A stretch of DNA of 64,000 nt from the IMG/VR virus record IMGVR_UViG_3300028030_000352; one strand, 5' to 3'. The stretch is from an uncultured virus (IMG/VR IMGVR_UViG_3300028030_000352). Lineage: Duplodnaviria; Heunggongvirae; Uroviricota; Caudoviricetes. Positions 3,287 to 62,396 of the stretch are shown in pieces (position 1 is the stretch's first letter; every line of letters starts with the position of its first letter). Under the pieces are notes generated by a model. That model worked only from the letters and a program-made list of their open reading frames with translations. It was not told the DNA's origin and searched no databases. Both the position numbers and the translations under genes were made by a program.

Positions 3287-3733
3287 ATGAAAACTTGTGA
3301 TAAACTATACACACAAATGATAAGCATTGACCCGATTGAACGACAGGAAAACATGTTCAGTTCGTTCATAAACATTACCGTTTACTGCAGCGGAAAATTT
3401 GCAAACTACCGCGTTTTTAGTGAACGAGAGGGTTTCCATCCACTTGACGGACTTACCGTCGTTGGATACTTGACGGAAATCGGTCGTCTTCACTTAGACG
3501 GTGAATTGAAAATGTTTTTAAGGGACGGAGCTTCTAAAGCTTTGGCGTGGATACTGTATCATACGTTAAAGAACGGTATGGTGTATGATGACGTGGGGCC
3601 GTTCATCGATGACTTTAAACGACGGTTTCCATCGGCGAAAATCGATCTTGAATCAATAATCAATGAAATGCATACGATGAGTCATCATATGGCAAGACAG
3701 CTTACTTCCCGACCCATAGAGATCCGCATTTAG
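3287..3733 (+). CDS. Hypothetical protein
   Basis: 148-aa ORF filling the gap between minus-strand genes. Confidence 0.65.
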   Translation: MKTCDKLYTQMISIDPIERQENMFSSFINITVYCSGKFANYRVFSEREGFHPLDGLTVVGYLTEIGRLHLDGELKMFLRDGASKALAWILYHTLKNGMVYDDVGPFIDDFKRRFPSAKIDLESIINEMHTMSHHMARQLTSRPIEIRI

Positions 3734-8933: not shown

Positions 8934-9310
8934 CCCATTATCATTCCCAATTTTATGAATTTTCTTAGTTGATCGTCATCAAACTTTACACTTTCAAACC
9001 TCGTCCTGAAGTTTTCTATACCTGCTCCGATCGGATCAGATTCATACTGATCTATCATCGATTTGACGTTTATATCGTATCCGTCCATAACGCTTTCGAC
9101 GTGTTCATATCTTTGTTCTTGGCTTCCATTGATCATTACTGGTGGTATTGGCCACTGGTTGAGTTCTAACCAGTAAACGATTTCTTTTTTGATGCTACGG
9201 TCGTCGTTAATATCCCAGACTCTTACGTTGAGTACGTTACCATTATTCTTTTTTAATCTTATATTGTACTCATCTAGTAAACTGTTATATGTTATTAATA
9301 ATATTTTCAT
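8930..9310 (-). CDS. Hypothetical protein
   Basis: ATGA-coupled ORF ending FIKLGMIMG. Confidence 0.7.
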   Translation of the reverse strand: MKILLITYNSLLDEYNIRLKKNNGNVLNVRVWDINDDRSIKKEIVYWLELNQWPIPPVMINGSQEQRYEHVESVMDGYDINVKSMIDQYESDPIGAGIENFRTRFESVKFDDDQLRKFIKLGMIMG

Positions 9311-9690
9311 TTTATCATTGACATTACGAAAAGTTGTAAAAGATCGTCTTTTTCCATTTCATTTTGCATGAAGCGCGTATGTACCGCGACCTTCATGTTA
9401 ACCCCATTTTCCTTGCAAAGTTTTAACACATGTTTTGAATGAACTACAGACAGTACGTATTTGAAGCCTCTTAGATTCCTGAAAATTTCAAACTCCGCCC
9501 CGTTTGATAGTAGAAACATGACAACAATCGCGAAATTTGTGTTTAGAGTTATATCAGGGGGTTCGCCCATCATCTCCTTCGTTACAAGTTTTGACACTAG
9601 ATCATTGAACTTGATCTCATTGAAACTTCTATAGGTATTATAATCTTCTATTATACTGCGTACGTCAAGATTTTTCCATGGATTTTTCAT
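9307..9690 (-). CDS. Hypothetical protein
   Basis: ATGA-coupled ORF. Confidence 0.7.
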   Translation of the reverse strand: MKNPWKNLDVRSIIEDYNTYRSFNEIKFNDLVSKLVTKEMMGEPPDITLNTNFAIVVMFLLSNGAEFEIFRNLRGFKYVLSVVHSKHVLKLCKENGVNMKVAVHTRFMQNEMEKDDLLQLFVMSMIK

Positions 9691-9695
9691 GGCTT

Positions 9696-10031
9696 CTAAT
9701 TGAAATATTCAACGGATCTTCCCCTAATGTCTACGATATCGATCATAACTCTTTCCGATCTGGATACGAGACGAGACATTCTATCTTCTAAAACGTCTAG
9801 ATTTATTCCTTCTATATTTCCATTATAAAGTGCTACTATTTGTTCATCGAGTTCATTATATTCTTTAATCAATCTTTCAATATCCTTCATGATTTCAATT
9901 CTATTTGTAATAGTTTCCATCATCTTTTTGGGCATCGAAGTGACTAGCATAGTGGCGTATTTGCCGTTTGCCTCCATCTGTTCATTCAATTTTTTTACGT
10001 TATTTACTTTATCTTTCATTTTATCATCCAT
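9696..10031 (-). CDS. Hypothetical coiled-coil protein
   Basis: Overlaps the cas8c stop; helical heptad-like composition. Confidence 0.65.
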   Translation of the reverse strand: MDDKMKDKVNNVKKLNEQMEANGKYATMLVTSMPKKMMETITNRIEIMKDIERLIKEYNELDEQIVALYNGNIEGINLDVLEDRMSRLVSRSERVMIDIVDIRGRSVEYFN

Positions 10032-11388
10032 TTTTTACTACATTTATCATGCCCATAGCACGATATCTTTGTGTGTATCCGGTATTATGGCCTAACGTTA
10101 TGTTGATGGACTTTTTTACGATATGATGCGGGATCGGTCGATCAGCGATAACCGACCGAATGATGTCAGATTCAATTTTAGCGACAACGCGCTTGTCGGA
10201 TTGTCCAACGGGCGGATGAATTGATGCCGCGATAGCGAACAAAGACATGTTAGGATCGCTACCATCTTTCTTTGTTGGAGTTCTCATAAAACCGGGACGC
10301 ACAAGTTTATTGAACTTGATGATCTTTTTTCCAATATTTTTAACATCATCTACGATATAATCTGTGATACCCATACGGGATGCAGATTCAGAAACGAACA
10401 AAAAATGTGCTTTGTTATCGGGAATATTAACAACACTAGTCGTGTAAATCGAAGATAGATAGTCAAAAATATCGGTGGATGAAATACCAAATAGTGCGTT
10501 TTTTGGTTCTTTGTCTACCCAGAACAGGATGTAGTTATCTTTATCGAGATAAAACTTATGCTTTGATTTATTTGCGGTGAAATGTGACAACACCTTCAGA
10601 ACGCTATTTTCGTCATACTCAGTTAAGTTGAGATCCTTGTTTTTGATTCCCCATCCAGAGTCTGTGATTTGATCGTCATTTCCGCCGACGAGTTGGTTAC
10701 GTCCGACCTTGATCGATCCTAGTCGCAAAGCTTGACTCATTTTACGTGAAAACGGTGAAAATACGTCATTTCCGCTTCCCTTAAGCCTATAGTAATTATC
10801 AACAAACCACTGTTTGACCTCTGGAATGTCCATTAAATTATGTTCTACGCCGTTTTCTACGTATACTGGTACGATAAAATCTGAGTGAAGAAAGTTAACG
10901 TCTGTATTATCGGCGTCCAAGTACGTGTGATATGGATCTTTCATGATTGTCCACAGAGCGTACATGTATCGGTTTCCGGTTTGTAAAGCGCACTCCCAAA
11001 CAATGCGTTTATGAAATGCGTGGATACCGCGTTGAGTAGGGCCATCCTTAGAGTAACCTGACTTGAGACCTAGCCTTGACAATACTTGCTCATATTGTGA
11101 TTGAGTGGTGTAATTATATATTGTTGACGGATCAATATATGAGTGAATGTATCCATGCAGAAATGTTGACATATGTTTCGTACCATACGATGTCATAAAT
11201 TTTTTGAATGTCAACATCTTTGTCGGCTTGTTTTTATCCTTAACAGATACAAGACGCCATGAGGGGATCGGACCATTCAAGATGATTACCATCTTGTATG
11301 ATACGTTATTGTTTTCGTGAAATTGGTCATTGAATAAATGACCATTATTGTTATAATATTCGATAATATCTGTTAGTATTTGTGACAT
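10024..11388 (-). CDS. cas8c: Divergent type I-C Cas8c (Csd1) large subunit lacking the C-terminal Cas11 domain
   Basis: Collinear resemblance to Csd1 blocks: ILTDIIEYY, RLGSIKVG..LVGGND, YILFWV, FLFVSESASRMGI, DIIRSVIADRPIP, RAMGMI; AGGAG RBS; CRISPR context. Confidence 0.75.
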   Translation of the reverse strand: MSQILTDIIEYYNNNGHLFNDQFHENNNVSYKMVIILNGPIPSWRLVSVKDKNKPTKMLTFKKFMTSYGTKHMSTFLHGYIHSYIDPSTIYNYTTQSQYEQVLSRLGLKSGYSKDGPTQRGIHAFHKRIVWECALQTGNRYMYALWTIMKDPYHTYLDADNTDVNFLHSDFIVPVYVENGVEHNLMDIPEVKQWFVDNYYRLKGSGNDVFSPFSRKMSQALRLGSIKVGRNQLVGGNDDQITDSGWGIKNKDLNLTEYDENSVLKVLSHFTANKSKHKFYLDKDNYILFWVDKEPKNALFGISSTDIFDYLSSIYTTSVVNIPDNKAHFLFVSESASRMGITDYIVDDVKNIGKKIIKFNKLVRPGFMRTPTKKDGSDPNMSLFAIAASIHPPVGQSDKRVVAKIESDIIRSVIADRPIPHHIVKKSINITLGHNTGYTQRYRAMGMINVVKNG

Positions 11389-11404
11389 ATTTTTCTCCTG
11401 TTTC

Positions 11405-11668
11405 TTAGCAGTTCATACCTTTACGTTTTAGTATTCTTTTTTTGTATTTTTCTAAATGATCACGTAGGTCTGATATCAATGATTTATAGTCACCAATGTC
11501 ATTGGGCATGTCATAAATGGTCATAGTTCCATTATCAGTATATTCAAATTTTGTTACACTACCCTTTTTTGATATAGTGCCATTGAATTTAATATTATTA
11601 ACATAATATCCATTCCTGTATGATGATATACCATCAATGCTGATTATTTTTACTTTGTAACCTTTCAT
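11405..11668 (-). CDS. Hypothetical protein between array 1 and cas8c
   Basis: 87-aa ORF with AAGGA upstream of ATG. Confidence 0.65.
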   Translation of the reverse strand: MKGYKVKIISIDGISSYRNGYYVNNIKFNGTISKKGSVTKFEYTDNGTMTIYDMPNDIGDYKSLISDLRDHLEKYKKRILKRKGMNC

Positions 11669-11694
11669 ATCGTTTCCTTGCCGTGTTGTTGCGT

Positions 11695-12848
11695 GTTGAA
11701 GTCCACAGCCCCCTTAACGGGGGCTGACACAGACGTGACACGAGCAAAGCGAGTGGATTGCGCCGTCAGTTGAAATCCACAGCCCCCTTGACGGGAATTG
11801 ACACCACCTCGAAGTAGATCGTGATGGTCATGACGCTCCCTTGTTGAAATCCACAGCCCCCTTGACGGGGGCTGACACTCTTTCGATGGTCGTGAGGGCG
11901 TCTTCGCCAATGGTGGTTGAAATCCACAGCCCCCTTGACGGGGGCTGACACCTCAGGTCAGACGACGCTAATTGCGTAGTCGACGAAGTTGAAATCCACA
12001 GCCCCCTTGTCGGGGGCTGACACCACGGATCGCGACCAGCGTTGTTGCCTTCGCCCTTCGTTGAAATCCACAGCCACCTTGACGGGGGCTGACACGAATC
12101 GGGAAGTGACGATGAGGAAAATCGTCTTAGGATGTTGAAATCCACAGCCCCCCCCCTTGACTGGGGCTGACACAACGGTCGGTGAGGCGCGGCGCGCCAG
12201 CACCAAGCTCCTGTTGAAATCCACAGCCCCCTTGACGGGGGCTGACACCAGGTGAAGCGACATTTTTCCTGGCATTTCTGCATGCGTTGAAATCCACAGC
12301 CCCCCTTGTCGGGGGCTGACACCGTCCTCAACAGGAGCAGAAGTTCGAATTCACGAACCGAGTTGAAATCCACAGCCCCCCCTTGACGGGGGCTGACACA
12401 CGTAAAAAATGATGCTTTGCAGGCTTTGCGCAACCGGAGTTGAAATCCACAGCCCCCCTTGACGGGGGCTGACACTGAACTACAAATAGTTAAGGGAACG
12501 CTCAAGAAAAGCTTGAAATCCACAGCCCCCCTTGACGGGGGCTGACACAGGACACGCACACTGAGGCGACTTTCACCGACGCTCCTTGAAATCCACAGCC
12601 CCCCTTGACGGGGGCTGACACTCGACGAAGCTCACTTCGTTAGCTCCCTGTAGAAGAGCTTGAAATCCACAGCCCCCCTTGACGGGGGCTGACACCGTCG
12701 TCGAGCGGCAGAGCCCGTGCAGAGCGGAAGGTTGAAATCCACAGCCCCCTCCCCCTTGACGGGGGCTGACACCATTTTCAACGTATTACAAATACGTTGT
12801 TGATAAGATGAAAATCCACAGCCCCCCCCCCTTGACGGGGGCTGACAC
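11695..12848 (-). CRISPR. CRISPR array 1: 16 repeats / 15 spacers, type I-C-like repeat GTGTCAGCCCCCGTCAAGGGGGCTGTGGATTTCAAC
   Basis: Regular 36-bp palindromic repeats with unique ~34-39-bp spacers; leader on the right; many repeats have expanded homopolymer tracts. Confidence 0.98.
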
Positions 12849-13055
12849 AGTATGTATTGGAAATAGCGTTACGAACGTTATTTCCAATGCATCCCTGTGA
12901 GGAGTTATTTTTCTACTGAACTCCTGATCAGTAAAGAAAACTTTTAACGAGTGTTTATTTACTTGTCAAAGATCTATATACTTACTTTACACTCGTTATT
13001 TTTGCGAGCGATCCCAGGAATTTGCGCGCCGTATGATCGCTCGCAAAAAAAGATG
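12849..13055 (-). promoter_or_regulatory. CRISPR leader 1 with sigma70-like promoter (TTGACA-17-TAAAAG, 12969-12941) and three inverted repeats
   Basis: Near-identical to leaders at 17942 and 22945. Confidence 0.85.
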
Positions 13056-15137
13056 TCATACTGTGATGATTACTCCTGTGTTCATGTCGTATGAATCCTT
13101 ATCGATCACTATAATATCAGTTTCATTCACTGTCAGTGTTTCATATTTTAATTTGCTTAATTTTTCTTCAGAAAGTGACACCATGTACGGCGATAATTTT
13201 CTCATCCCTGTCAAAATATTTCCTCCGTTCATGATCTCGTTTAGTATCTTCTCATAATCACCATATGGAACAACGACCGAGATTTCGTCCTTTTTCTCAA
13301 TCACGTGGAACTTTTCACACACATCACCGAATTGCAGTTTCTCCCTTAGTTTTATGATATCATCTGGATCAGTATTATCATAGTACATACTAAAATATTT
13401 GATCAGGTCATTATGACCAAGTGGATTAACATTTCCGGTTTTTATCATACTATATGTTATGCTCGCCTGTTTATCAACTTCATCAGGGATAAAGTATCCT
13501 CCGGTTTTGATTATATACACCATTCCTATTTTATTCGGGTCGTTCTCTCTGTTACATCTTCCCGCGATTTGGTTAATCGATGATAACCCCGCCATGTCTC
13601 TTATCACGACGCCAAAGCTATAGTCCATTCCCGCTTCAACGAGTGATGTTGCAATAACGATCGATTTGTTGTTAATCCTGTCCATCGCGTCAAGTCGATG
13701 TTTAGGACACATGTTAGTCGATAAGTGGATTACGTGATTGTCTGTTGATTCAGCGATTGAATTGTAGATGTTTGCTACTTGCTGTTTACTATTGAATACG
13801 GCCATCAGACCGTCATCATTTATTTTGTCTTTTATGAATTTGATCGTACCATACTCATCTAATTTTTTACCTAAAACTGACTCGTCCCAAACAAACTTTT
13901 TGTGTTGTTTTACAGATTTTACTTTATTACTGATTATGCTTGTTGTATTCGTTATCGGAGGCATAGTAGCAGTAGCAAGTACCACAGAGCTATCAGCAAC
14001 ATCAACCAGGTCCCACAAAGACTGGATAATCGGGCTGTATATATGTCGAGGGAACGTTTGAACCTCATCAAACATAATTACCGAATTTGCCATTCGGTGG
14101 AGTTTTCTAACTTTCCTAGGGGAACATCCGTGTAGAGATTCAAAAAATTGCACATTCGTCGTGATGATAACCGGATAGTCCCATCTTTCAGCGCCCTTTT
14201 TATTCGCCCACATTTTATTCTGATCATCATTAACGTAGGTTGAATAATGCATCAGAACGTTATCTTCACCCAATATGTCCTTGAAAATTTTCGCTGTCTG
14301 TTCAATGAGTGAAATGAATGGCAGTACTAGTATGATTCTGTCTAGGTTATTATGCATCACATGTTGGATCGCGAAAGCTAACGATGCTAACGTTTTTCCA
14401 GATCCGGTTGGGGCGTTAAGAACGTAAAAACCGGTGCCATTTTTCGCTGATTTGATTGAATCAGATAAAACCATGTCTCGGAGCGTTTGTTGCTCTGATT
14501 TACCTGGTTTTCTCAGCGATCTGATATAACGAATTAATGATTTGTATGCATCATGCCAATCGATCTTTCGTTCTTTCGGTGGGTGTCCTGCGAACGTTGC
14601 TGTGTCCGTTCGATCGGCGTCGATAAGGGATGAATACAGCATTCGTATAATAGTGTCATTTTTTGTTCCATCGTGCAATTCTATGCTTGACGGAACAGGA
14701 ACGTCATATTTTGGAATTGCATCCATGTTTATTGCGTCATATGATATTTTATACGCGGTTCCATCTGTTGTTGTGTTTGACATGTTGTGGAGTCCGGTAT
14801 GGTGCCATCCGATCATAGCTTGTGATATCATTAATACTTGTTTGTTATTCACCAATTTAGATACATACATCGATGACACTGGAGCATGATACGTTAATTT
14901 TATATTATCATTTGATACGTTATAATCATATGGAATATGATATGCATCATGGATCTTAGCTTGGAAATATGGGTTATACTTACCCCAATCATGATACATA
15001 CCGATAAAATGTGCTATATCAACATAATCACCTCCCATAAAATTTGACATATAGTGTGAACATAGTGTTGCAACATTTTTGTTATGTTCATGGACTGTTT
15101 GAATTTTGTGTTCGTTATAGTGTGCTATGTATGTCAT
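13056..15137 (-). CDS. cas3: Cas3 HD nuclease-SF2 helicase
   Basis: IAH..EH, YHDWGK, WHHTGL, SSLIDADRTDT; Walker A APTGSGKT, DEVQ, LATAT, QIAGRCNRE. Confidence 0.96.
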   Translation of the reverse strand: MTYIAHYNEHKIQTVHEHNKNVATLCSHYMSNFMGGDYVDIAHFIGMYHDWGKYNPYFQAKIHDAYHIPYDYNVSNDNIKLTYHAPVSSMYVSKLVNNKQVLMISQAMIGWHHTGLHNMSNTTTDGTAYKISYDAINMDAIPKYDVPVPSSIELHDGTKNDTIIRMLYSSLIDADRTDTATFAGHPPKERKIDWHDAYKSLIRYIRSLRKPGKSEQQTLRDMVLSDSIKSAKNGTGFYVLNAPTGSGKTLASLAFAIQHVMHNNLDRIILVLPFISLIEQTAKIFKDILGEDNVLMHYSTYVNDDQNKMWANKKGAERWDYPVIITTNVQFFESLHGCSPRKVRKLHRMANSVIMFDEVQTFPRHIYSPIIQSLWDLVDVADSSVVLATATMPPITNTTSIISNKVKSVKQHKKFVWDESVLGKKLDEYGTIKFIKDKINDDGLMAVFNSKQQVANIYNSIAESTDNHVIHLSTNMCPKHRLDAMDRINNKSIVIATSLVEAGMDYSFGVVIRDMAGLSSINQIAGRCNRENDPNKIGMVYIIKTGGYFIPDEVDKQASITYSMIKTGNVNPLGHNDLIKYFSMYYDNTDPDDIIKLREKLQFGDVCEKFHVIEKKDEISVVVPYGDYEKILNEIMNGGNILTGMRKLSPYMVSLSEEKLSKLKYETLTVNETDIIVIDKDSYDMNTGVIITV

Positions 15138-15178
15138 TTTTTGCTGTGTTGTTGTTATGTGCTGTTGTTTGTTGTTGA

Positions 15179-17941
15179 GTTGAAATCTACAGCCCCATTG
15201 ATAGGGGCTGACACGCGAAGCTGACCGCTGACTAGTGGCTCCAAGTGATATCGTTGAAATCCACAGCCCCCTTGATAGGGGCTGACACTATTTGTGGTAA
15301 CAAATTTTGGACCGGTTTGTAAAATTAGTTGAAATCCACAGCCCCCTTGACGGGGGCTGACACACACCGTCAGATGGAGATTTTGCCCTGATGAATGGCA
15401 GTTGAAATCCACAGCCCCCTTGACGGGGGCTGACACCCGCATCAAACGCCGCCTTTCGGGCCGTTGAGATGAGGTTATGTTGAAATCCACAGCCCCCTTG
15501 ACGGGGGCTGACACTTACAATGTCATCTATTAAAAATTGAATATGTGGAATAAGTTGAAATCCACAGCCCCCTTGACGGGGGCTGACACGGAATTATCGA
15601 AATTAGGAAGTTTAAAAAGTTTTTGCGTTGAAATCCACAGCCCCCTTGACGGGGGCTGACACACACCAACTGCATCAACATCTGTTGACTCATTTAAGAG
15701 TTGAAATCCACAGCCCCCTTGACGGGGGCTGACACTCAAGAGTTGATGGTGAAACTTTATTGGTCGTGAATGGTTGAAATCCACAGCCCCCTTGACGGGG
15801 GCTGACACCAAAATGAACATGGACCATTACGTTGATACGGAATTGGTTGAAATCCACAGCCCCCTTGACGGGGGCTGACACTGCTTTTTGATACGCTGGA
15901 CGTGCCTTACATTTTAGTTGAAATCCACAGCCCCCTTGACGGGGGCTGACACTTGACGAATGTTCCTGGTCGCGTGATTGAGTATGAGGGTGGTTGAAAT
16001 CCACAGCCCCCTTGACGGGGGCTGACACTGCGGTCGAGGAAGAGTCCAATGACATCTTCCCGCCTGTTGAAATCCACAGCCCCCTTGACGGGGGCTGACA
16101 CTCCGACGCGCAGGATATTTTGAACGGTAAAGACGCGGAACCCACGTTGAAATCCACAGCCCCCTTGACGGGGGCTGACACTTAGCTAAGATGAGAAATC
16201 AATCACAAATTGTCATTGACGTTGAAATCCACAGCCCCCTTGACGGGGGCTGACACCACATTGGGTTGATTTTAACCAGGGTAAATATTTTAGTTGAAAT
16301 CCACAGCCCCCTTGACGGGGGCTGACACCCCTGGCCCTTTGGACACTTAGGTGCTATGTTTGGGCCTGTTGAAATCCACAGCCCCCTTGACGGGGGCTGA
16401 CACTGGGAACACCAGGGTAATTTTTCATGAATCGTGGTTGGTTGAAATCCACAGCCCCCTTGACGGGGGCTGACACCACGATGATATATCGGATTTCTGA
16501 ATGTTTCTCCATAATGTTGAAATCCACAGCCCCCTTGACGGGGGCTGACACCTACCTGCTGGAGTGTCGGGTGACCGGATTTTGCTCGTTGAAATCCACA
16601 GCCCCCTTGACGGGGGCTGACACGCCTCCCAAAGTTCCTATGGGCGATTGCCGGGTGATACGTTGAAATCCACAGCCCCCTTGACGGGGGCTGACACGAT
16701 TAGGGAGGGCAGTTACTCTACTCAAATCTGATATTGTTGAAATCCACAGCCCCCTTGACGGGGGCTGACACTTGCTACCTCGTCCCACATGGTCTTGATT
16801 TTTCCATGTTGAAATCCACAGCCCCCTTGACGGGGGCTGACACTTGTCTTTGAATCTCCGAGTAAATGCTCAAATTTTGTCGTTGAAATCCACAGCCCCC
16901 TTGACGGGGGCTGACACTCATTCAAGGACATCTAATCATAGAGATGTACTAGAGTTGAAATCCACAGCCCCCTTGACGGGGGCTGACACACCCGATCTCC
17001 GTATTACGAGAAATTGGACACTCAGACGTTGAAATCCACAGCCCCCTTGACGGGGGCTGACACGCGAATGTTTTCTGATATTGCAAATATGGATATGATG
17101 GGTTGAAATCCACAGCCCCCTTGACGTGGGCTGACACCTATTATAGTTTGTTATTTGTAGGGTATAATAACGAATGGTTGAAATCCACAGCCCCCTTGAC
17201 GGGGGCTGACACCAAACACTCAATTATTGGAACATACAATGTCACTAATGGTTGAAATCCACAGCCCCCTTGACGGGGGCTGACACTACATATCTCGGCG
17301 GGTAACGTATTACTCATGTATCGTTGAAATCCACAGCCCCCTTGACGGGGGCTGACACATTTACATGATGGCAACTGGATGGACTCATATACATGGTTGA
17401 AATCCACAGCCCCCTTGACGGGGGCTGACACATCGATTCGCCGTCGACATCCGTGACGCTATCGGTGAAGTTGAAATCCACAGCCCCCTTGACGGGGGCT
17501 GACACCATTGGCATGCCCTGCTCATATGACCTACCGAGTAGTGTTGAAATCCACAGCCCCCTTGACGGGGGCTGACACCTGGGGCTTCCGTGGGGCCAAA
17601 GAAGTTGGAAACCCGTTGAAATCCACAGCCCCCTTGACGGGGGCTGACACTTTGGTAAATTAGACGAGACAGGTCCAGGTCTATTTGTTGAAATCCACAG
17701 CCCCCTTGACGGGGGCTGACACACAAACCGATAAACAGGCCGAACCAACGGTATCAGCGTTGAAATCCACAGCCCCCTTGACGGGGGCTGACACTCAGAA
17801 AGGTTGAATGACAATGGAAGATGAGACTATTGTTGAAATCCACAGCCCCCTTGACGGGGGCTGACACTATTTTAACCAGAGACAGTTTTATAATATCTGA
17901 CGCTGGTTGAAATCCACAGCCCCCTTGACGGGGGCTGACAC
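15179..17941 (-). CRISPR. CRISPR array 2: 38 repeats / 37 spacers
   Basis: Same 36-bp repeat, nearly invariant; degenerate trailer repeats at 15179 and 15253. Confidence 0.99.
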
Positions 17942-18146
17942 AGTATGTATTGGAAATAGCGTCACGAACGCTATTTCCAATACATCCCTGCGAGGAGTTA
18001 TTTTTCTACTGAACTCCTGATCAGTAAAGAAAGCTTTTAGTGAGTGCTTATTAAGTTATCAAAGATCTATATACTTACTTTACACTCGTTATTTTTGCGA
18101 GCGATCCCCGGAATTTGCGCGTCGTATGATCGCTCGCAAAAATATT
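17942..18146 (-). promoter_or_regulatory. CRISPR leader 2 (TTGATA-17-TAAAAG, 18062-18034)
   Basis: Copy of the shared ~200-bp leader. Confidence 0.85.
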
Positions 18147-18752
18147 TCATACTGTGATGATCATGTCATCGGATACGTTAACCGTTCCATTTTCCATCGT
18201 TGAATGATAAAACACTGGAACTCTATTAACATAATCGATGTGGTGTAGCATCATCCCGAAATCATGACTAACGTCAATCGCGCCGCTATCGTCGTATTCA
18301 CTTACCGATGCGATAAGTTCACGCATGCCTAGGTATGGTGTCCTAAACACCCTCTTGTTTTTGATTCGTCTTTCCGCGATCCCTACCGCTTTCGCCTCAT
18401 TTTCTGATTCGACTGACAGCTCAATCGCGTACTCAACGTCAGTCAACATTGTTGTTTGACGCTGCGTTCTATTTGATTCAATCCCGATCGTTTTTTTGTC
18501 AAATTGACTAGGCTTTTTGATCGCTATTGGTTTAAACTTTAGTTCATTGAACGTCGTCGTCCACTTTCTGATCGGTTTTAGAACGCTAAACTTGTTTACC
18601 TTGTACACAACACCTGGATGCCAGTAGATCGACTCCGCAATTCCGATTAGCGCGGATGGTGTTGGGATATCATACGTGACTCTCGATGCTTTATGCACCG
18701 GATTGCTAAAGCATGCGAATTTCCCCTTTACATTAAACCTTAGATATCTCAT
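18147..18752 (-). CDS. cas5c: Type I-C Cas5 (Cas5c/Cas5d, pre-crRNA processing)
   Basis: GKFACFSNP..K..RVTYDIPTPSA.IGIAESIYWHP, RTQR...LTDVEY, PYLGMRE. Confidence 0.95.
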   Translation of the reverse strand: MRYLRFNVKGKFACFSNPVHKASRVTYDIPTPSALIGIAESIYWHPGVVYKVNKFSVLKPIRKWTTTFNELKFKPIAIKKPSQFDKKTIGIESNRTQRQTTMLTDVEYAIELSVESENEAKAVGIAERRIKNKRVFRTPYLGMRELIASVSEYDDSGAIDVSHDFGMMLHHIDYVNRVPVFYHSTMENGTVNVSDDMIITV

Positions 18753-19708
18753 ACTCGAACAACTTTGTCAGCGAAGCTCTTCGGTGCTTCGAGTTCTGTT
18801 TCGTCAAATTTAACCACTGCTTTTCCATTAACCACGTGAGCGTCAACTCTTGATTCGAAATCGAGTGGATCCATGTCGAACCCATCGGTTCCACAATCAT
18901 GTAAGAACACAAACTTTACGCTAACTTGTGGTCTTGCCGCTGACGCCGATTCCATGTATCCTTTCACTAGAGCGTCGATCATATCATTTACATCTTGTTC
19001 TGTCATTCTTGATACGCTGCACTGACGACCGTTGATCGTAAATGTACCGACGTAGAGTGAATGCCTTACTACTGAAAACTTACCAATTTCGGAGTCCCTT
19101 GCCTCTAATTCAAGTTGTTCTTGTGTCGGGTTCTTGTTTTTCCTTGGTGATGCCTTATTCACCCTTGTGATCGTGTGTTGATCGATTTCAATCGTGTCTG
19201 TTGACAGAGCGTGTGAAAAAACGACCGGACCTCTTACTGATTTGACAAGTCTCTTGTCAATCTCACCGACGTTCAGCACTGAACCAAACATTCTTACTGC
19301 TTGGAATTGGTCAAGGAAGTAATCAGTTAAGCTACCGTCCCCACTGAATGATTGAATTGACTTTGAGATGTTATTTGCTACGAACGTGTTTGACTTGTAT
19401 AGAAGTCGTGCTCCGTTGTGTAGTGCCAGGTAGTCACGGATCTTTCGTTTCACGCTACCGGCGGAGATCATGCCGGTTCCGTCGATTGACCTCGGGTTGT
19501 TTTCGTCATCTGGGTCACCGTTCGGGTTTGAGGCTTTCACTTCAATGATGAACGCTCCGACGTAGTAGTGGTCATTGAACTTGAGCTGCGTTGTTTCGGT
19601 GGTATCGTTCTGGGCTTCCATTGTATCTTCCTTGCTTTCTGTTGTTTCGAGGGTATGTTCGTGTGTATTGGTGGTTTCTGTGGCTTCTTCTGTATTTTCT
19701 GTTGTCAT
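18749..19708 (-). CDS. cas7c: Type I-C Cas7 (Csd2) with acidic N-terminal extension
   Basis: NPNGDPD..N.PR, VKRKIRDY, VRMFGSV, VRGPVVFSHALS. Confidence 0.95.
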   Translation of the reverse strand: MTTENTEEATETTNTHEHTLETTESKEDTMEAQNDTTETTQLKFNDHYYVGAFIIEVKASNPNGDPDDENNPRSIDGTGMISAGSVKRKIRDYLALHNGARLLYKSNTFVANNISKSIQSFSGDGSLTDYFLDQFQAVRMFGSVLNVGEIDKRLVKSVRGPVVFSHALSTDTIEIDQHTITRVNKASPRKNKNPTQEQLELEARDSEIGKFSVVRHSLYVGTFTINGRQCSVSRMTEQDVNDMIDALVKGYMESASAARPQVSVKFVFLHDCGTDGFDMDPLDFESRVDAHVVNGKAVVKFDETELEAPKSFADKVVRV

Positions 19709-19730
19709 TGTTTTAACTCTTTAATGTTTA

Positions 19731-20324
19731 TTATGATATGATATGGACCTCAGGTTCCATGATTCCATTTTGATCGATTAACTTTGACTGCAATACATAC
19801 AAAAGTCTAAGTCTATCCGGTAGATCATACAGTTCACTTTTTACTGATTCATATATCGGACTAGTTGGAAGTGGCAGATTACTTAGTAATTCGATGTCTT
19901 TATCATCTATCACATAGTAACCGTTATCTTCGTCTTCGTTATATTCTTTGGCTTCCCAAATCGGAACTCCTGATTTGGGCTTAATTTTCCCACCACTATA
20001 GACCCATGGTCCCATAGTGTATGCTTGTCTTATTATTCTTATGTTAACAGCAAAAAATGACGTCATATCCATACCATCTAGGTATGATCGGAATGTAATA
20101 TATTCAAATGGTGCGTATCCAATTATATTATATACTTCTTTTTTGCTAGACATGTTTTCAGCATCCATCAAGATTTTTACCGGCCAATCTTCATATACTT
20201 CATAATCCTCAGGGACTCTGTTCCTTCTTAATCTACGAAGTTCACTATTCTTTTTTTGGATTAAAGCTCGTTGGATTCTAATTGTTCGCTCTATTTGTGT
20301 TTCGTGGCTTTTATTGTGATCCAT
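19731..20324 (-). CDS. Hypothetical protein
   Basis: 197-aa ORF directly upstream of cas7. Confidence 0.75.
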   Translation of the reverse strand: MDHNKSHETQIERTIRIQRALIQKKNSELRRLRRNRVPEDYEVYEDWPVKILMDAENMSSKKEVYNIIGYAPFEYITFRSYLDGMDMTSFFAVNIRIIRQAYTMGPWVYSGGKIKPKSGVPIWEAKEYNEDEDNGYYVIDDKDIELLSNLPLPTSPIYESVKSELYDLPDRLRLLYVLQSKLIDQNGIMEPEVHIIS

Positions 20325-20345
20325 GGTATTTTTTAGTAGTTTGAG

Positions 20346-20780
20346 TTATATTTGATAATTATTCGTAAAATAAATAATTGCCAGATGAGTTGAGATTTCT
20401 CTATCAATAGATGCTACAGCGCCCCAATCAATTGCGTCGAGTTTTTTAATTGTACTATCAGGTACTGCGCCATCCATGTACGCATCACATATTCTCATCC
20501 AGTTTTCGACACCACCGACAATGTTAGCCATTTTCATTAGACGAAATGAGTAATGTTGAACTGTTATCTTTCTAGCCGATGATACACGGATAGGATCCCA
20601 TTCATGATTTTTAAGTTGTGCTGCTTCATCTATGATAGACAGTGCTTGCTGTTCTGACTTTATGAAACTCGGTGAAATTGGTATTTCTATTCTATCTGGT
20701 CTTATATTTCTAACGATAGGTTTTTTAACTGTATTACTATAAGACCTATCGATTGAGCATGATCCGTTTCTACACCCCAT
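20346..20780 (-). CDS. Hypothetical protein
   Basis: 144-aa ORF overlapping the upstream gene. Confidence 0.7.
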   Translation of the reverse strand: MGCRNGSCSIDRSYSNTVKKPIVRNIRPDRIEIPISPSFIKSEQQALSIIDEAAQLKNHEWDPIRVSSARKITVQHYSFRLMKMANIVGGVENWMRICDAYMDGAVPDSTIKKLDAIDWGAVASIDREISTHLAIIYFTNNYQI

Positions 20781-21156
20781 TTTCTTTTTCTTCCTTGATC
20801 ACCTTGTAACAGTCGGACACCATCTTATTGATGGAAAGCACGTTGGATTCGTAGCTCAAAAGAAAGTCCATCATTCCCTCTGTGCTAAGAGTCTTTTCTT
20901 TGTTTAGCTGTAGTAGACTCCCTGATAGTTCGGAGATCAGATCAGTCACGATTTTGTTACACCGTGAATGCGTGTATTTAGACAGTCGCTTAGTCTTTTC
21001 TACCTCTTCCAGTGCTCCCACTACCATCTTGTGTACGTTTGATTTACTGTTCTTTCTGACGACGTAAATCTTTTCGTCAACGTTTTGTCTCCTGTTCATG
21101 TCCATGAACACGTATGTTGCCGCCGTTAGCATTCCTAGAATTTGTTCGTATGTCAT
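20770..21156 (-). CDS. cas11: Putative stand-alone Cas11c (small subunit; detached Cas8c C-terminal domain)
   Basis: 128-aa helical protein; ILGMLTAA ~ LGRLFAVLE, CNKIVTDLISEL ~ YEK.I.EI...L, KTLSTEGMMDFLLSYE ~ P..LSL..QG.F.LGYYHQ of the Csd1 C-terminus (by eye). Confidence 0.55.
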   Translation of the reverse strand: MTYEQILGMLTAATYVFMDMNRRQNVDEKIYVVRKNSKSNVHKMVVGALEEVEKTKRLSKYTHSRCNKIVTDLISELSGSLLQLNKEKTLSTEGMMDFLLSYESNVLSINKMVSDCYKVIKEEKENGV

Positions 21157-21158
21157 TA

Positions 21159-21671
21159 TTAGAGTTTTCCTTTTTTGAATTTTATCGCTTGATCCGATAT
21201 CATCTCTGAGAGTTCATCGTATATTACATCAATAATCTTGTTTTTATCAATCAATCTATTTAGCTGTTCAACCTGTTTAAGATCATTGATCACCATCGAA
21301 TGATAATTAAGCATAGAATATACGCCAAAGTCTATTGATTTTTTAGACACGTTAAATGTCTTCACACTAGGCCAGATTTCGTCTAGCATTTTTGTAACGC
21401 TGCCGTATTTTTGTACTATATACCGCGTGATGATCCCGATATACAGTTCATACTGATAACTGTGCACGCTAAGCAGGGACTTATAAACTTCAATCTTTTG
21501 TCCACCTATCATGACTTCAAAATTTCTAGAAAGTGTACGATATCTAGAATCAGGGTTAGGTTCTAAAATTTTGAAACTTTCAATATCTGCGTTCAATGCG
21601 AAGTCAACAAAGTCTAGGACTTGCTTACTTTCCATAACCTGTCTTGTTACTTTATCTATGCTTTTTCCCAT
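21159..21671 (-). CDS. Paralogue family B protein
   Basis: Similar to 60557..61078 (MGK.I.K.T.Q..E) and the other B members; follows a family A gene. Confidence 0.8.
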   Translation of the reverse strand: MGKSIDKVTRQVMESKQVLDFVDFALNADIESFKILEPNPDSRYRTLSRNFEVMIGGQKIEVYKSLLSVHSYQYELYIGIITRYIVQKYGSVTKMLDEIWPSVKTFNVSKKSIDFGVYSMLNYHSMVINDLKQVEQLNRLIDKNKIIDVIYDELSEMISDQAIKFKKGKL

Positions 21672-21675
21672 TTTA

Positions 21676-22230
21676 TCACTGTGAAATTAGCTTCATCTTT
21701 GCTTTCATCAGCGAAAGTTTTTTCAGTTTTTCCGTGTCAATTTTTAGAAATTTGATATCATATCCATAATCATCGGAGATCAGGTTTAGTGCCATTTGGA
21801 CCGTTTCTTCTAAGTCAATATGTGTTACTGTATTTTGTGATGACTGTTCTACTTTATCTCCGATCAGTGATACCATGTACTCGCTGATCGATTTACTAAC
21901 CTTTGACACGTTATCATTGGTTTTTTGAATATTACCAATGGCGTTTTTCCAATCATCGATTACTAACAGTTTCCACTCATTCGTTGTTTTGTATATGTGT
22001 GTTAGTATTCTGCTGGTTATTGAATACTTCAGACCGGTAATTTCATTGCTCAAGTATGGGATCGAGATTTTGTCTCTCCCATCAATTGACGCCATATTGA
22101 TCCCATCAATGTTTATGATTGTTATATCAATATCGTTCACATAGTCTATAATTTCTGGTTTTATGTCTTCATTGAAGACTCTGGACTTCATTAGTCTTTT
22201 ATATACGATTGTATGCTTTATGTCTTTCAT
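21676..22230 (-). CDS. Paralogue family A protein
   Basis: TIVYKRLMKS N-terminal motif. Confidence 0.8.
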   Translation of the reverse strand: MKDIKHTIVYKRLMKSRVFNEDIKPEIIDYVNDIDITIINIDGINMASIDGRDKISIPYLSNEITGLKYSITSRILTHIYKTTNEWKLLVIDDWKNAIGNIQKTNDNVSKVSKSISEYMVSLIGDKVEQSSQNTVTHIDLEETVQMALNLISDDYGYDIKFLKIDTEKLKKLSLMKAKMKLISQ

Positions 22231-22235
22231 TTATA

Positions 22236-22745
22236 TCATCCTGCTATAACCATCATTTTTACTATTCTTATCTGATCGTCTGTTATCTCTTTACCATATC
22301 TTTTTCGTATAATATCCTCTATACTCATTGGCTTCATCGATTCAACGATCTTTTTTGTCATCATCGGACTTATGGTCAGCATGATGAGGTGTTTATGCTT
22401 CACTATTGTCTTAGACTTTTTCTTGAAGTGTTTCTTTAGTAACCTTCTTGCAATATCTAACATCATACTATTTATTGTTTCGCTGTTTATTGAATGGTAT
22501 GATCTTGTATATAAATTCATACTAAATGATTTGTCATTGAATTTATACTTTATGATTGTTGATAATCCGTATGACTTTCTAGTATATTCACATGATATAA
22601 GTTTAAACTTTTCATCAACTTCTGATCTAATATCTTGTATGATATCATAATCAATATCGTCAATATTTTTTGGGAAGTTTAATACATTATTCACATACAT
22701 TATCATGCTTTTTAATAGTTCATTGTTCATATGCTTGTCATTCAT
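22236..22745 (-). CDS. Hypothetical protein
   Basis: 169-aa ORF starting 12 bp after array 3. Confidence 0.75.
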   Translation of the reverse strand: MNDKHMNNELLKSMIMYVNNVLNFPKNIDDIDYDIIQDIRSEVDEKFKLISCEYTRKSYGLSTIIKYKFNDKSFSMNLYTRSYHSINSETINSMMLDIARRLLKKHFKKKSKTIVKHKHLIMLTISPMMTKKIVESMKPMSIEDIIRKRYGKEITDDQIRIVKMMVIAG

Positions 22746-22757
22746 TTATGTGTGTGT

Positions 22758-22944
22758 GTTGAAATCCACAGCCCCCTTGACTGGGGCTGACACTGGCGAC
22801 ATTGTCCTCAAAATACCTGATACCACATAACGTTGAAATCCATAGCCCCCTTGACGTGGGATGACACTTTCATCTATTGACTTTTTTATATCTGAGATTA
22901 TTTTAGTTGAAATCCACAGCCCCCTCCCTGACGGGGGCTGACAT
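22758..22944 (-). CRISPR. CRISPR mini-array 3: 3 degenerate repeats / 2 spacers
   Basis: Repeats at 22758, 22832 and 22906, each mutated relative to consensus; own leader copy. Confidence 0.93.
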
Positions 22945-23153
22945 CGTATGTATTGGAAATAACGTTACGAACGCTATTTCCAATACATCTCTGCGAGGAG
23001 TTATTTTTCTACTGAACTCCTGATCAGTAAAGAAAGCTTTTAGTGAGTGTTTATTTACTTGTCAAAGAAACGTATATTTATTTTACACTCGTTATTTTTG
23101 CGAGTGATCCCTCCACTAAAATCTGTTTATTTTATGATCGCTCGCAAGATATT
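22945..23153 (-). promoter_or_regulatory. CRISPR leader 3 (TTGACA-17-TAAAAG, 23065-23037)
   Basis: Third copy of the leader. Confidence 0.85.
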
Positions 23154-24278
23154 TCATTTCAGTTTTTCATGTGATTCCCACCTTGAAAGTCCACTGTCTA
23201 CCATATCTGTGAGTCTATTTTCGCTTGAAATCTTGTCTCCAAGAATTGTCGCGTTTTTCTTCATTTTTTCTTCATTTACGCTTAACGTTTTCATGACGTT
23301 TGTCATTCGTTTCACGATAAAATGAGTCAAGGTCAATGAATCCACGAGCGCCACTCTTTCAACGGATGAATGCGATATATCTCTTTCATGCCACAAAGCG
23401 ATAGACTCCATTGACGGTGAAACGTACCCTCTGATGAGTCTCGCGAGTCCGGTAACGTTTTCACTCATGATCGGATTTGATTTATGAGGCATCGCGGATG
23501 ATCCGACTTGTTTTTTGTCTTTCATTTCACACACTTCATCCACCTCTGTTCGTTGCAAATGTCGAATCATCAGTGCTAAACGCTCAACATTAGACGCCAC
23601 GATCGCTAAAGTGCTCATCACTAGCGCGTGCCGATCTCTTGAAACGACTTGTGTGGCTATTGGCTCCGGGCTTAGACTAAATTTTGACAGGACAGCACGT
23701 TCAATCTCTGGGCTTATAAATTCATGTGTCCCCACCGCCCCTGAGATTTTCCCGTATGACACTTCCCTTTTCGCGTTTTCAAGCCACTTAGATGACCTCA
23801 TCATCGCGTACATATGACCGGCTAGAACCCTACCGAACGTTATCGGCTTAGCGTGGATCCCATGTGTTCTACCGATCGTTTCAGTATTTTCATATTGTGT
23901 TGATCTTTGGCTTAAATGAAGTATCAGTCCGTCAAGGTCATATTTAATCGTGTCGATGGATTTTGTTATTAAGTAAGAAAGCGCGGTATCTACGACGTCC
24001 GATGATGTCATTCCTCGATGAAGGTAGCTCGCCTTTTCATTTTGAGCCTCTAAATGTTTAAGAAATGCTACAACATCATGTCGCGTTTCTTTTTCTAGTC
24101 TGTTTATTTCGTCTATGTCAATTTTCAGACCTTTTAGTGATTCGTATGTACCACTAGGGACGGTCTTTATTGACTCTAACTCTTTAAGAACTTCAAGTTC
24201 TATCTGGAGCCATGTGTTGTACTTGTTTTCATTTGACCATATACTGGTCATTTCTTTTGTAGTGTATCTGTCTATCAT
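23154..24278 (-). CDS. purB: Adenylosuccinate lyase, C-terminally short
   Basis: MIDRYT..EM..IWS, RHDVVAF, H.GMTSSDVVDTA, GRTHGIHA, SSAMPHKSNP, WHERDISHSSVER. Confidence 0.95.
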   Translation of the reverse strand: MIDRYTTKEMTSIWSNENKYNTWLQIELEVLKELESIKTVPSGTYESLKGLKIDIDEINRLEKETRHDVVAFLKHLEAQNEKASYLHRGMTSSDVVDTALSYLITKSIDTIKYDLDGLILHLSQRSTQYENTETIGRTHGIHAKPITFGRVLAGHMYAMMRSSKWLENAKREVSYGKISGAVGTHEFISPEIERAVLSKFSLSPEPIATQVVSRDRHALVMSTLAIVASNVERLALMIRHLQRTEVDEVCEMKDKKQVGSSAMPHKSNPIMSENVTGLARLIRGYVSPSMESIALWHERDISHSSVERVALVDSLTLTHFIVKRMTNVMKTLSVNEEKMKKNATILGDKISSENRLTDMVDSGLSRWESHEKLK

Positions 24279-24295
24279 ATTGTAACGCTACAAGT

Positions 24296-24880
24296 CTACT
24301 CTAACACTCGTCTTTCGTTCATGTACCTCCATATAAATATGCTTTTTCTCATTTGCTTGAAATAATCATCCGATGCTTTGAATTTGTACATCCAAGCTAA
24401 TTGTCTATATGTGTTTTTACTTTTAATAAATGACAGGTGGATTTTGCTTATTCTGGAACAAGAGATCACCACTCTACTACCGTTTTTCGTAAGATTTATC
24501 ATGTTATAATATCCAGTAATTTTCCCTGTGTCTACATTTCTTACCATAGTAAACTCTTTTTTAGAATAAATTGAGTCTACTTTCGGTATAGCCATTACAC
24601 GTACCGCGTCGTTACCGGAAAATGCGACTTTAGATCCAACTCTACTGACTGATGTGTTACTATATGAACAGAAAAAGAAAACGCCAGGTCTGTCGCTATC
24701 GTCCCTTGCGAACACGTAACCTTTTGTCTTTCCTATTTTTACATTAAACACGCCAAAGTGAAAGCCGGGTATTGCCCTCACTGTGCTTGTCATGATTGAA
24801 CTATCAGCTACGATAGTATTACTTGGTGTTGCGGCTATTGACGCTAAGGCTAACGCGATTGCGAGTATTTGTTTTTTCAT
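24296..24880 (-). CDS. Hypothetical exported protein
   Basis: Signal-peptide-like N-terminus MKKQILAIALALASIAA. Confidence 0.75.
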   Translation of the reverse strand: MKKQILAIALALASIAATPSNTIVADSSIMTSTVRAIPGFHFGVFNVKIGKTKGYVFARDDSDRPGVFFFCSYSNTSVSRVGSKVAFSGNDAVRVMAIPKVDSIYSKKEFTMVRNVDTGKITGYYNMINLTKNGSRVVISCSRISKIHLSFIKSKNTYRQLAWMYKFKASDDYFKQMRKSIFIWRYMNERRVLE

Positions 24881-25850: not shown

Positions 25851-26478
25851 TCAATCTTTTTACCTTTTTTAAGTATGCGATAGTATCCACTATGTGTTGT
25901 GGAAGATTACGGTTATATTTAACGATCGATTCTAGAGCCCAAAGTGGATCGTCAAAGTTTGCAATAAACTTATTTAAATATTTATACCCTGTATCAAGCA
26001 TGCATTGTATATTGGATGATTTGTTTATTATGCTCCAATTTGAGATGTCTTGATTGAACGCACTTGCTTTATAGAACATCGCATACATACTTTTTACATT
26101 CGACACGTCCCATCGGCTTAGGTCTTGATCGAATGATTTAGTATTGCTGAACATCAATCTCGTGTCCGTTACGTGACTTACGTTCCACGCGCTTATATCC
26201 TGATTGAACTTTTTACATCCTAGAAACATCCGACCCATATTAGTCACGTTGGACACGTCCCAGTTTCCGATGTTTTGATTGAACGCTTTCGCCCCCTCAA
26301 ACATACTTGCCATGTCTGTTACATTTGAGGTGTCCCACCGGCTAATGTCTTGATTGAATGACTTTTTATTAAGGAAAAGCCATTTCATATCGGTGATGTC
26401 GCTCGTATCCACAAAACGAACGTCGTCATCATTTTTGATCATCTTTTCTAGTTGTTTTTTCGTTACCTTACGGTTCAT
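25843..26478 (-). CDS. DUF285/BspA-type repeat protein
   Basis: 25-aa [20 protein letters not shown] repeats. Confidence 0.92.
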   Translation of the reverse strand: MNRKVTKKQLEKMIKNDDDVRFVDTSDITDMKWLFLNKKSFNQDISRWDTSNVTDMASMFEGAKAFNQNIGNWDVSNVTNMGRMFLGCKKFNQDISAWNVSHVTDTRLMFSNTKSFDQDLSRWDVSNVKSMYAMFYKASAFNQDISNWSIINKSSNIQCMLDTGYKYLNKFIANFDDPLWALESIVKYNRNLPQHIVDTIAYLKKVKRLNE

Positions 26479-26986
26479 CGATAAATTCTAATGTTAATTT
26501 ATATTCTTTTATTATTTTATCGAAAAGCAATTGTTTTGTTGCTCTACGAGCTATGTCTCCGTTATTGTAGAAGTATTGAACAATTTTATAAATTATACTA
26601 TTATCAATGTTGTAGTATTCAAGTATATTATGCATGTTAATTCTTAAATTTTTATGCTTAACATTTTTAATATTTAGTTTTTTGTATATAACTTTATCAA
26701 TTTCATATCCACTGACTCCATGGAATTTTTTGAAATACGCGACAAAAACCTTTCCAGCTACTCTATTGTACAAACCGTGGTCAAATGATTTCCATAGCCC
26801 GACGATATCAACGTGAACGTTAAACTCGTCACCGTTCACCTTTGTTTTGACCACAACACTATATAAATTATCGTCTTTAACATCGATGATTTCAAAATCA
26901 CTGGATTGCAAGAACTTGACAAAATTAACAATGATCTCGTCTTGTAACATTTTGCATAGTGTTCTTTTTATCACATCACCTTTCAT
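26468..26986 (-). CDS. Paralogue family B protein
   Basis: MKGD.IKR....M...EI; follows a family A gene. Confidence 0.8.
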   Translation of the reverse strand: MKGDVIKRTLCKMLQDEIIVNFVKFLQSSDFEIIDVKDDNLYSVVVKTKVNGDEFNVHVDIVGLWKSFDHGLYNRVAGKVFVAYFKKFHGVSGYEIDKVIYKKLNIKNVKHKNLRINMHNILEYYNIDNSIIYKIVQYFYNNGDIARRATKQLLFDKIIKEYKLTLEFIDEP

Positions 26987-44607: not shown

Positions 44608-44608
44608 G

Positions 44609-61078: not shown

Positions 61079-61079
61079 G

Positions 61080-62386: not shown

Positions 62387-62396
62387 AGCTTCTGCC

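Follow-up and report, generated by a model that had tools for sequence, protein, structure and literature searches.

Arrays interleaved with the interference genes of a very diverged type I-C-like CRISPR-Cas locus, probably carried by a mobile element

How are the genes of a CRISPR-Cas system expressed when its arrays stand between them, and which proteins fill these arrays when adaptation genes are not in sight? Both questions are raised by a locus found on a contig of an uncultured virus (IMG/VR record IMGVR_UViG_3300028030_000352), in which three arrays are interleaved with the cas genes. The window analysed here is a stretch of 64,000 nucleotides (nt) of this 67,428-bp contig, and statements that a gene or sequence element is absent from the contig refer to the window only. 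We favour, with some reservation, the interpretation that the locus is a strongly diverged CRISPR-Cas system of type I-C-like character, equipped for interference only and residing on a mobile element, the likeliest carrier being a fragment of a large phage.

All components of the locus are encoded on the minus strand. In transcription order, they are leader 3 (22946..23153) and array 3 (22758..22945); six open reading frames (ORFs) for proteins of 169, 184, 170, 128, 144 and 197 amino acids (aa) (19731..22745); cas7 (18749..19708, 319 aa); cas5 (18147..18752, 201 aa); leader 2 (17942..18146) and array 2 (15179..17941); cas3 (13056..15137, 693 aa); leader 1 (12849..13055) and array 1 (11695..12848); an ORF for an 87-aa protein (ORF87, 11405..11668); and a cas8c-like gene (10024..11388, 454 aa), the end of which overlaps by 8 nt with a further ORF for a 111-aa protein (ORF111, 9696..10031). 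The arrays therefore split the cas genes into three units, namely cas7-cas5, cas3 and cas8c-like. This interleaving, which had been described in a first-pass annotation of the sequence, was confirmed by the repeat parse and the gene family matches. The locus does not follow the canonical type I-C order of cas3-cas5-cas8c-cas7-cas4-cas1-cas2 followed by a single array; this order, also cited in that annotation, matches the one read in MT836695.1 from cas3 through cas1.

The 36-nt repeat, which reads GTGTCAGCCCCCGTCAAGGGGGCTGTGGATTTCAAC on the transcribed strand, had 46 matches in the window at up to three mismatches (0.00 expected), and its 16-nt handle-proximal part had 57 matches (0.36 expected). 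All 57 fall within the three arrays, and no solitary repeat was detected in the window by the scan with the 16-nt part. Delimited by an indel-tolerant parse, arrays 1, 2 and 3 contain 16, 38 and 3 repeats and 15, 37 and 2 spacers, respectively, giving totals of 57 repeats and 54 unique spacers of 34-44 nt, and the spacer count of the earlier annotation is thereby reproduced. The G+C contents of the spacers are 53% in array 1, 42% in array 2 and 30% in array 3, compared with 34% for the non-array part of the window; the arrays thus seem to have sampled different DNA. The repeat RNA is predicted to form a hairpin, with a stem of 8 bp and a loop of 5 nt, followed by an 11-nt 3' tail (-18.1 kcal/mol), which corresponds to the stem-loop and 11-nt 3' handle of type I-C repeats. 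A stem of 7-9 bp and the 11-nt tail are also retained in the trailer repeats located beside cas3, ORF87 and the first of the six ORFs (ORF169).

The three arrays differ in how their repeats have diverged. In array 2, 35 of the 38 repeats are identical and two of the three variants occupy the final two positions on the trailer side, the usual picture of what appears to be growth by polarised acquisition. In array 1, many repeats contain G-run insertions, with an expanded G-run found in seven of the eight leader-proximal repeats versus one of the eight distal ones, and repeats 3-5 have a common altered last base. The insertions fall in the loop, leaving the 8-bp stem and the 3' tail preserved. 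Such clustering would be expected if the leader-proximal repeat is copied as a template, and homopolymer slippage or sequencing error could have contributed to the G-runs. Array 3 is a degenerate mini-array, the middle repeat of which lacks the hairpin.

Each array is preceded by a copy of an approximately 200-nt leader. The three copies share 87% mean column identity in a three-way alignment, their 33-nt core occurs exactly three times in the window, and no further leader copy was found elsewhere in it. Every leader starts at the TGA stop codon of the gene upstream, i.e. a PurB-like gene (leader 3), cas5 (leader 2) or cas3 (leader 1). Moreover, the last 15 nt of cas3 (13056-13070) are identical to the last 15 nt of cas5 (18147-18161; both on the minus strand), so that 12 coding bases before the stop are common to the two genes and both proteins end with IITV. 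These alignments show three copies of one leader-array cassette placed behind three genes. Because the leaders start at TGA and the ends of cas5 and cas3 match, the duplicated unit appears to have been 'end of a gene + stop + leader + array', and because the two genes have these 15 terminal nt in common, the end of cas3 or cas5 would also have been rewritten when recombination spread the cassette.

The cas3 product matched the PADLOC Cas3c model (1.9e-155) and scored above the cut-offs of the domain models TIGR01587 (122.1 vs 102.45) and TIGR01596 (68.7 vs 43.45), and it has the fused HD nuclease and superfamily 2 helicase that characterise type I-C Cas3. In an alignment with eight homologues, the invariant HD residues (H6, H49-D50, H84, H112-H113 and D173/D175/D178) and the helicase motifs GSGKT and DEVQ were all kept, which bears out the earlier impression of intact nuclease and helicase motifs. 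The closest relatives are 30-34% identical to this protein, and the named ones are mostly from Clostridia. The cas5 product belongs to the Cas5c family (PADLOC Cas5c, 3.1e-40; TIGR01876, 115.7 bits vs a cut-off of 85) and matched the PDB entries 3kg4 (2.3e-27) and 7kha (3.4e-23); the type I-C combination of Cas5c with no Cas6 was also found, since none of the 82 ORFs searched matched the Cas6 models of PADLOC. The cas7 product appears Csd2-like and matched Pfam Cas_Cas7 (1.4e-40; 139.9 bits vs a cut-off of 33.2), whereas it remained under the cut-off of the Csd2 equivalog model TIGR02589 (94.1 vs 182.25 bits). Its best non-self relative is 33% identical, and among the few source-named matches, those to Csd2 outnumber a single Csh2.

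The large subunit is matched weakly. The cas8c-like product matched Pfam PF09709 (Cas_Csd1) with an E-value of 1.1e-08 (34.7 bits vs a cut-off of 27), and the alignment covers only the middle of the profile, residues 231-429 being aligned with profile positions 211-411 of 559 (201 positions). TIGR01863 was matched far below its cut-off (22.8 vs 218.65; residues 323-428 to positions 331-428 of 588), and four PADLOC Cas8c models gave matches of 1.8e-07 to 7.5e-06. Whereas a canonical 577-aa Cas8c spans Csd1 profile positions 1-559, the present protein ends about 25 residues past the profile match, with approximately 130-160 C-terminal profile positions absent. No relative but the protein itself was found by phmmer among 1.84 billion representatives, and its single-sequence fold had a predicted local distance difference test (pLDDT) score of 33, too low for use. 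No family match was obtained for the neighbouring ORF87 with Pfam, PADLOC or NCBIfam.

With respect to the question of how the arrays are filled, no match to Cas1, Cas2, Cas4 or Cas6 was found among the ORFs of the window, of which 73 were searched with Pfam, 82 with PADLOC and 83 with PHROGs, as had been stated for cas1, cas2 and cas4 in the first-pass annotation. The term adaptation-less, which had also been used there, holds for the 64.0 kb of the window but is weakened by the 67.4-kb length of the contig and by the possibly larger size of the replicon. We propose that the spacers would have been acquired by Cas1-Cas2-Cas4 acting in trans and provided either by the host or by an unseen part of the same replicon. 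Alternatively, the system may not be adaptation-less at all, with cas1, cas2 and cas4 located elsewhere on the replicon or with the contig forming part of a cellular chromosome. This deserves serious consideration, even if it is not the expected case: 64.0 of 67.4 kb are visible, the cas genes are already dispersed among unrelated genes, and array 2 has the appearance of active, polarised acquisition, but no adaptation gene is present in the 64 kb around the arrays. The first-pass annotation had also proposed to look for a host that has the same repeat together with cas1. Searches with the exact repeat and two degenerate patterns found no relative of the repeat in genome, viral or metagenome contigs, and the failure to find such a host is likewise in line with adaptation genes lying elsewhere.

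The six ORFs between array 3 and cas7 had no Pfam, PADLOC, NCBIfam or PHROG match, and the 197-aa protein had no match in the protein atlas either. All-against-all blastp and alignments revealed that the ORFs for the 184- and 170-aa proteins (21676-22230 and 21159-21671, respectively) belong to a two-gene cassette that occurs five times, encodes an approximately 184-aa protein followed by an approximately 170-aa protein and is located at 21159-22230, 26468-27537, 32635-33698, 33695-34761 and 60557-61625. The copies are 17-28% identical to each other. Since the cassette is present five times, at least two of the six ORFs appear to be generic genes of the element and not cas genes. A search for relatives of the cassette in viral contigs gave 39 profile-derived pattern matches, none of which was confirmed.

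The geometry of the junctions bears on the question of expression. The distance from the last repeat to the next start codon is 12 nt for ORF169, 41 nt for cas3 (approximately 40 bp in the first-pass annotation) and 26 nt for ORF87. The 41-nt stretch before cas3 is CA-rich and contains no Shine-Dalgarno sequence, whereas ORF87 has an AAGGA ribosome-binding site. In the region 9500-24500, 11 terminator-like sites were predicted (11.7 +/- 3.6 in shuffles); one of the 11 is on the coding strand, inside cas3, and none lies on this strand between the array and cas units. The RNA of leader 2 is predicted to form three strong hairpins (-96.7 kcal/mol, z = -9.43), and none of the three is followed by a U-tract. 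With gaps of only 12-41 nt, the array itself would have to contain any promoter dedicated to cas3 or to ORF87/cas8c. Because the arrays end so close to the next ORF, with no intervening terminator-like site, read-through expression is probable, and the simplest reading for cas3 and the ORF87/cas8c-like unit is probably transcription that enters from the array or from a site further upstream.

Under the mechanism that we propose, cas3 and the ORF87/cas8c-like unit would be expressed from transcripts beginning in or upstream of the preceding array, and cleavage at the repeat hairpins would yield CRISPR RNAs (crRNAs) and at the same time free the cas messenger RNAs (mRNAs). The cleaving enzyme would be Cas5, if it is active with Tyr43, Lys121 and Ala122, or another ribonuclease. 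A Cascade complex composed of Cas7, Cas5 and the Cas8c-like protein would then act with Cas3 to destroy DNA matching the 54 spacers. It can be suggested, quite tentatively, that the arrays serve as built-in punctuation of one long cas transcript. Cutting of the trailer repeats by the repeat endonuclease of the system itself would free the cas3 and cas8c messages, each with a repeat-derived 5' end and with the structured leader and the first-repeat hairpin at its 3' end; the amounts of Cas3 and of the large subunit would be set by crRNA processing in a feedback loop, and 'stop codon + leader + array' would be a cassette able to duplicate and to be placed behind any gene.

Another explanation is that the interleaving is a neutral by-product of recombination between duplicated leader-array cassettes. 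The cas units would then have their own promoters, which might be situated in the trailer or in the last spacers, the arrays would be transcribed separately, and crRNA processing would be unlinked to cas expression. The upstream stop and the 12 coding bases carried by the leader copies do point to duplication by recombination, the element is full of duplicated cassettes, and AT-rich DNA of this kind gives many promoter-like matches, some of them within cas7 and others at the 3' end of cas3. We regard this explanation as a somewhat unlikely one, given that the 12-41-nt gaps force any dedicated promoter to overlap an array and that no array is followed by a coding-strand terminator-like site.

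Several observations weigh against an interference system that works and is expressed through its arrays on a phage-like carrier. Sigma-70-like sites are in modest excess (58 vs 38.6 +/- 6.5 in shuffles), no promoter-like site is conserved in all three leaders (the conserved leader TTGACA has no good -10 element), and no RNA run is among the public runs listed with the locus. Arrays 1 and 3 contain degenerate repeats, the large subunit does not have the region that bears Cas11c in canonical systems, structure comparisons of ORF111 identified no Cas11 substitute, and the residue of Cas5 at the position of the catalytic His is Ala122. The locus is a singleton, with no related locus, repeat or protospacer in the collections searched. 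As for the carrier, none of the 83 ORFs matched terminase, capsid or portal families of PHROG at E <= 1e-05, and the window leaves out 3.4 kb of the contig and perhaps a far larger part of the genome.

The small subunit and Cas5 require some further consideration. In canonical type I-C systems, the C-terminal part of cas8c gives the small subunit Cas11c through internal translation. ORF111, the AlphaFold2 model of which consists of three long helices (mean pLDDT 90.2), is the obvious, still putative, candidate for a separate small subunit. No Cas11 match was obtained for it: its matches in Foldseek and VIA-align were restricted to generic coiled coils and designed bundles, those in Pfam and NCBIfam were noise, and those in the protein atlas were unnamed helical clusters. 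The predicted complex of ORF111 with the Cas8c-like protein had a score of 0.00 and speaks neither for nor against this role, and in hhalign comparisons with a Cas8c alignment of low diversity, neither ORF111 nor even the Cas8c-like protein gave an informative result. In the passages of PMC8524198 dealing with the catalysis of Cas5c, the catalytic triad is given as Tyr-Lys-His with Lys as the sole invariant residue, the substitutions listed as tolerated are His, Phe, Leu and Tyr, with Ala not among them, and the cleavage site of SmuCas5c is placed at the 3' base of a stem of 7 bp that carries a pentaloop. In the present protein, Tyr43 and Lys121 of this triad are kept and the His is replaced. 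The release of cas mRNAs by Cas5c cleavage, as suggested in the first-pass annotation, is thus weakened by this replacement. His45 adjoins Trp44 in the same protein, and compensation by His45 for the lost catalytic His may be imagined, purely as speculation.

These features might also be those of a decaying, non-working relic, i.e. an interference module deprived of adaptation, of the Cas11 part and of the catalytic His of Cas5. In addition to the Cas5 substitution, the match of the Cas8c-like protein to only about 200 of 559 profile positions and the degenerate repeats in arrays 1 and 3, such a relic would be in keeping with the results of the target searches, in which a target was found for no spacer. 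None of the 54 spacers had a match of at least 16 nt elsewhere in the window beyond chance, and only chance-level matches (best E 0.03-0.2) were obtained for the spacers of arrays 1 and 2 in phages and those of array 2 in plasmids. Nevertheless, the relic explanation is improbable, since the four cas ORFs are intact, the catalytic motifs of Cas3 have been kept despite approximately 32% identity to its nearest relatives, 35 repeats of array 2 are identical, and the G-runs of array 1 are confined to the loop, with the 8-bp stem and 3' tail preserved. Seed matches were searched as well: no spacer seed of at least 12 nt was found elsewhere in the window, and two TTC-flanked seed matches of 9 and 10 nt are at chance level, so that nothing points to a self-regulatory role of the mini-array through targeting.

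The arrangement was also compared with a second assembly, consisting of contigs produced by another assembler from the sole public run listed with the locus. This run is labelled as a hydrothermal vent metagenome and is probably the source sample, so that the comparison does not represent independent support. Single contigs of the second assembly cover the segment from the array 2 trailer through cas3 to leader 1 (12986-15357), that containing leader 2, cas5, cas7 and ORFs (18079-22548), array 3 (22519-23035), and the segment from the array 1 trailer through ORF87 to cas8c (9000-11871). No array variants were present among these contigs. As the diagnostic junctions are found on single contigs, the embedding of cas genes between arrays is not a mis-join, and the succession of the units and that of the spacers rest on the original assembly. 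An assembly artefact, with mis-joins at repeats or at the 200-nt leader copies, is thus very improbable as the source of the scrambled order, for although the short-read contigs break inside arrays 1 and 2 and leave 16238-17788 uncovered, the junctions of the degenerate trailer repeat with cas3, of cas3 with leader 1, of cas5 with leader 2 and of the trailer with ORF87 are each contained in one contig, and at most the unit or spacer order could be wrong while the embedding itself stands.

The nature of the carrier was considered from its gene content. Approximately 80 of the 83 ORFs of at least 100 aa share one strand, on which stop codons overlap with start codons; most ORFs in the window belong to no family (ORFans), multi-copy gene families are present, and a primase zinc ribbon is encoded. 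No plasmid or integrase functions were found in the window, Rfam gave 0 matches and the tRNA scan also gave 0. A megablast search of the locus against a phage collection and searches of viral contigs with Cas3 peptide patterns returned no match. A tblastn search with Cas3 against phages gave five records with 22-32% identity, which were not accepted as relatives of the locus; the best of them is a canonical type I-C locus with cas4 and cas1. The phage-like character claimed by the first-pass annotation is therefore upheld by the one-stranded, tightly packed and ORFan-rich organization and by a few phage-type metabolic genes, and is weakened by the lack of terminase, capsid and portal genes and of phage or viral relatives. 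A fragment of a large phage could be without hallmark genes, and a phage is the carrier that we consider likeliest, with fair probability; another mobile element is a lesser possibility, and a chromosomal island is unlikely.

Some further genes and repeats of the element were observed. Genes for a papain-family cysteine peptidase, a dCTP deaminase and the PurB-like adenylosuccinate lyase are located in 3702-5088 and 23154-24278 (minus strand), and the lyase is 41-46% identical to the products of genes in various phage records. In the region 25843-63992, there are 15 paralogues of the DUF285 family (25-residue repeat) of approximately 210-390 aa, e.g. at 40075-41196 and 51096-52265, which give many tandem repeats with a 75-nt period and also match large PHROG families such as phrog_17273. 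Near-perfect in-frame tandem repeats are present at 41275-41556 (21 nt x 13.5, 97%), 49948-50032 (18 nt x 4.7, 100%) and 57552-57624 (18 nt x 4.1, 100%); the ORF containing the first of these has weak 'tail protein' PHROG matches, the only 'tail' matches in the window. Three ORFs in the region 44035-48573 (minus strand) resemble a divided type IIG-like restriction-modification enzyme. They encode a 764-aa helicase/ResIII protein whose N-terminus is GIY-YIG-like, an Eco57I-type methylase of 557 aa and a methylase-like piece of 190 aa. All three match parts of one 1359-position PADLOC model, and the phage records in which the helicase/ResIII protein has its best relatives include those of Lak megaphages. 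Two copies of a 78-nt intergenic element, with six differences between them, are located at 43949-44026 and 43544-43621 (minus strand), and a related stretch occurs at 62387-62484. The element borders a small region poor in ORFs and has no relation to the CRISPR leader; it may serve the mobile element as a promoter or regulatory sequence.

If the arrays are truly part of the cas messages, the locus would represent a natural physical coupling of guide-RNA processing and Cas expression, an idea so far applied mainly in engineered operons. A 38-repeat array on a mobile element with no visible adaptation genes also sharpens the question of who fills such long arrays. Furthermore, the locus offers a very divergent and possibly minimal type I-C-like effector, with a short large subunit and no recognisable Cas11. 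Its value is limited by its being a single metagenomic contig, known from sequence alone, with no relatives or identified targets. Keyword searches of the literature found no description of arrays embedded between interference genes.

The repeat endonuclease Csy4 is used in engineered polycistronic mRNAs, which it cuts into separate units. The mechanism proposed here is similar in that repeat hairpins before coding regions would be cut by the system's own endoribonuclease, and differs in that the use of Csy4 is synthetic whereas the present mechanism is a proposal only. Compared with canonical type I-C systems (Desulfovibrio vulgaris Cascade, 7kha; MT836695.1), the locus shares the HD-helicase Cas3, a Cas5c-family protein with no Cas6, a Cas7 that may be Csd2-like, a candidate Csd1-like large subunit, and a G+C-rich repeat hairpin with an 11-nt 3' tail. 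It differs in its order of cas7-cas5, cas3 and cas8c, in the arrays located between the interference genes and in its unseen adaptation genes; in addition, the large subunit has neither the C-terminal part of the profile nor relatives, Cas5 has Ala in place of His, and Cas3 and Cas7 are only approximately 30-34% identical to their nearest relatives.

Among systems carried by mobile elements, those of huge phages are the closest parallel. According to the passages on these systems in Al-Shayeb et al. 2020 (PMC7162821), almost all of them are without Cas1, Cas2 and Cas4, in agreement with the remark in the first-pass annotation that phage-borne systems often lack cas1 and cas2, and phage arrays are compact, with a median of six repeats. 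The type I-C variant described there has no Cas1 or Cas2 and uses another helicase for Cas3. Like this variant, the present locus appears to be borne by a mobile element, has no Cas1, Cas2 or Cas6 in the window, and has a Cas5d-like processor with altered active-site residues; unlike it, the locus encodes a bona fide HD-helicase Cas3, contains arrays of 38, 16 and 3 repeats, and has interleaved arrays, a layout absent from the text passages on those systems (PMC7162821). Huge phages have genomes of >200 kb (PMC7162821), whereas the present contig is 67,428 bp. In the passages of PMC11656645 that deal with it, the type I-F system of Vibrio phage ICP1 is likewise of type I and borne by a phage, equipped with a nuclease and with arrays of its own, and acting in conflict between elements; it has its own adaptation module, belongs to another subtype and has known targets. 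Plasmid type IV-A systems, which are shown in the same source to use host I-E adaptation in trans, provide a precedent for an element-borne system with no cas1 and cas2, the arrays of which are filled in trans. They have no Cas3-type shredding nuclease (PMC11656645), and for the present locus no repeat-matching host was found. Adaptation-less CRISPR systems of phages and plasmids are thus already established, and it is above all the embedded arrays with their stop-fused leaders that set this locus apart, together with its true Cas3, its long arrays and its seemingly truncated large subunit.

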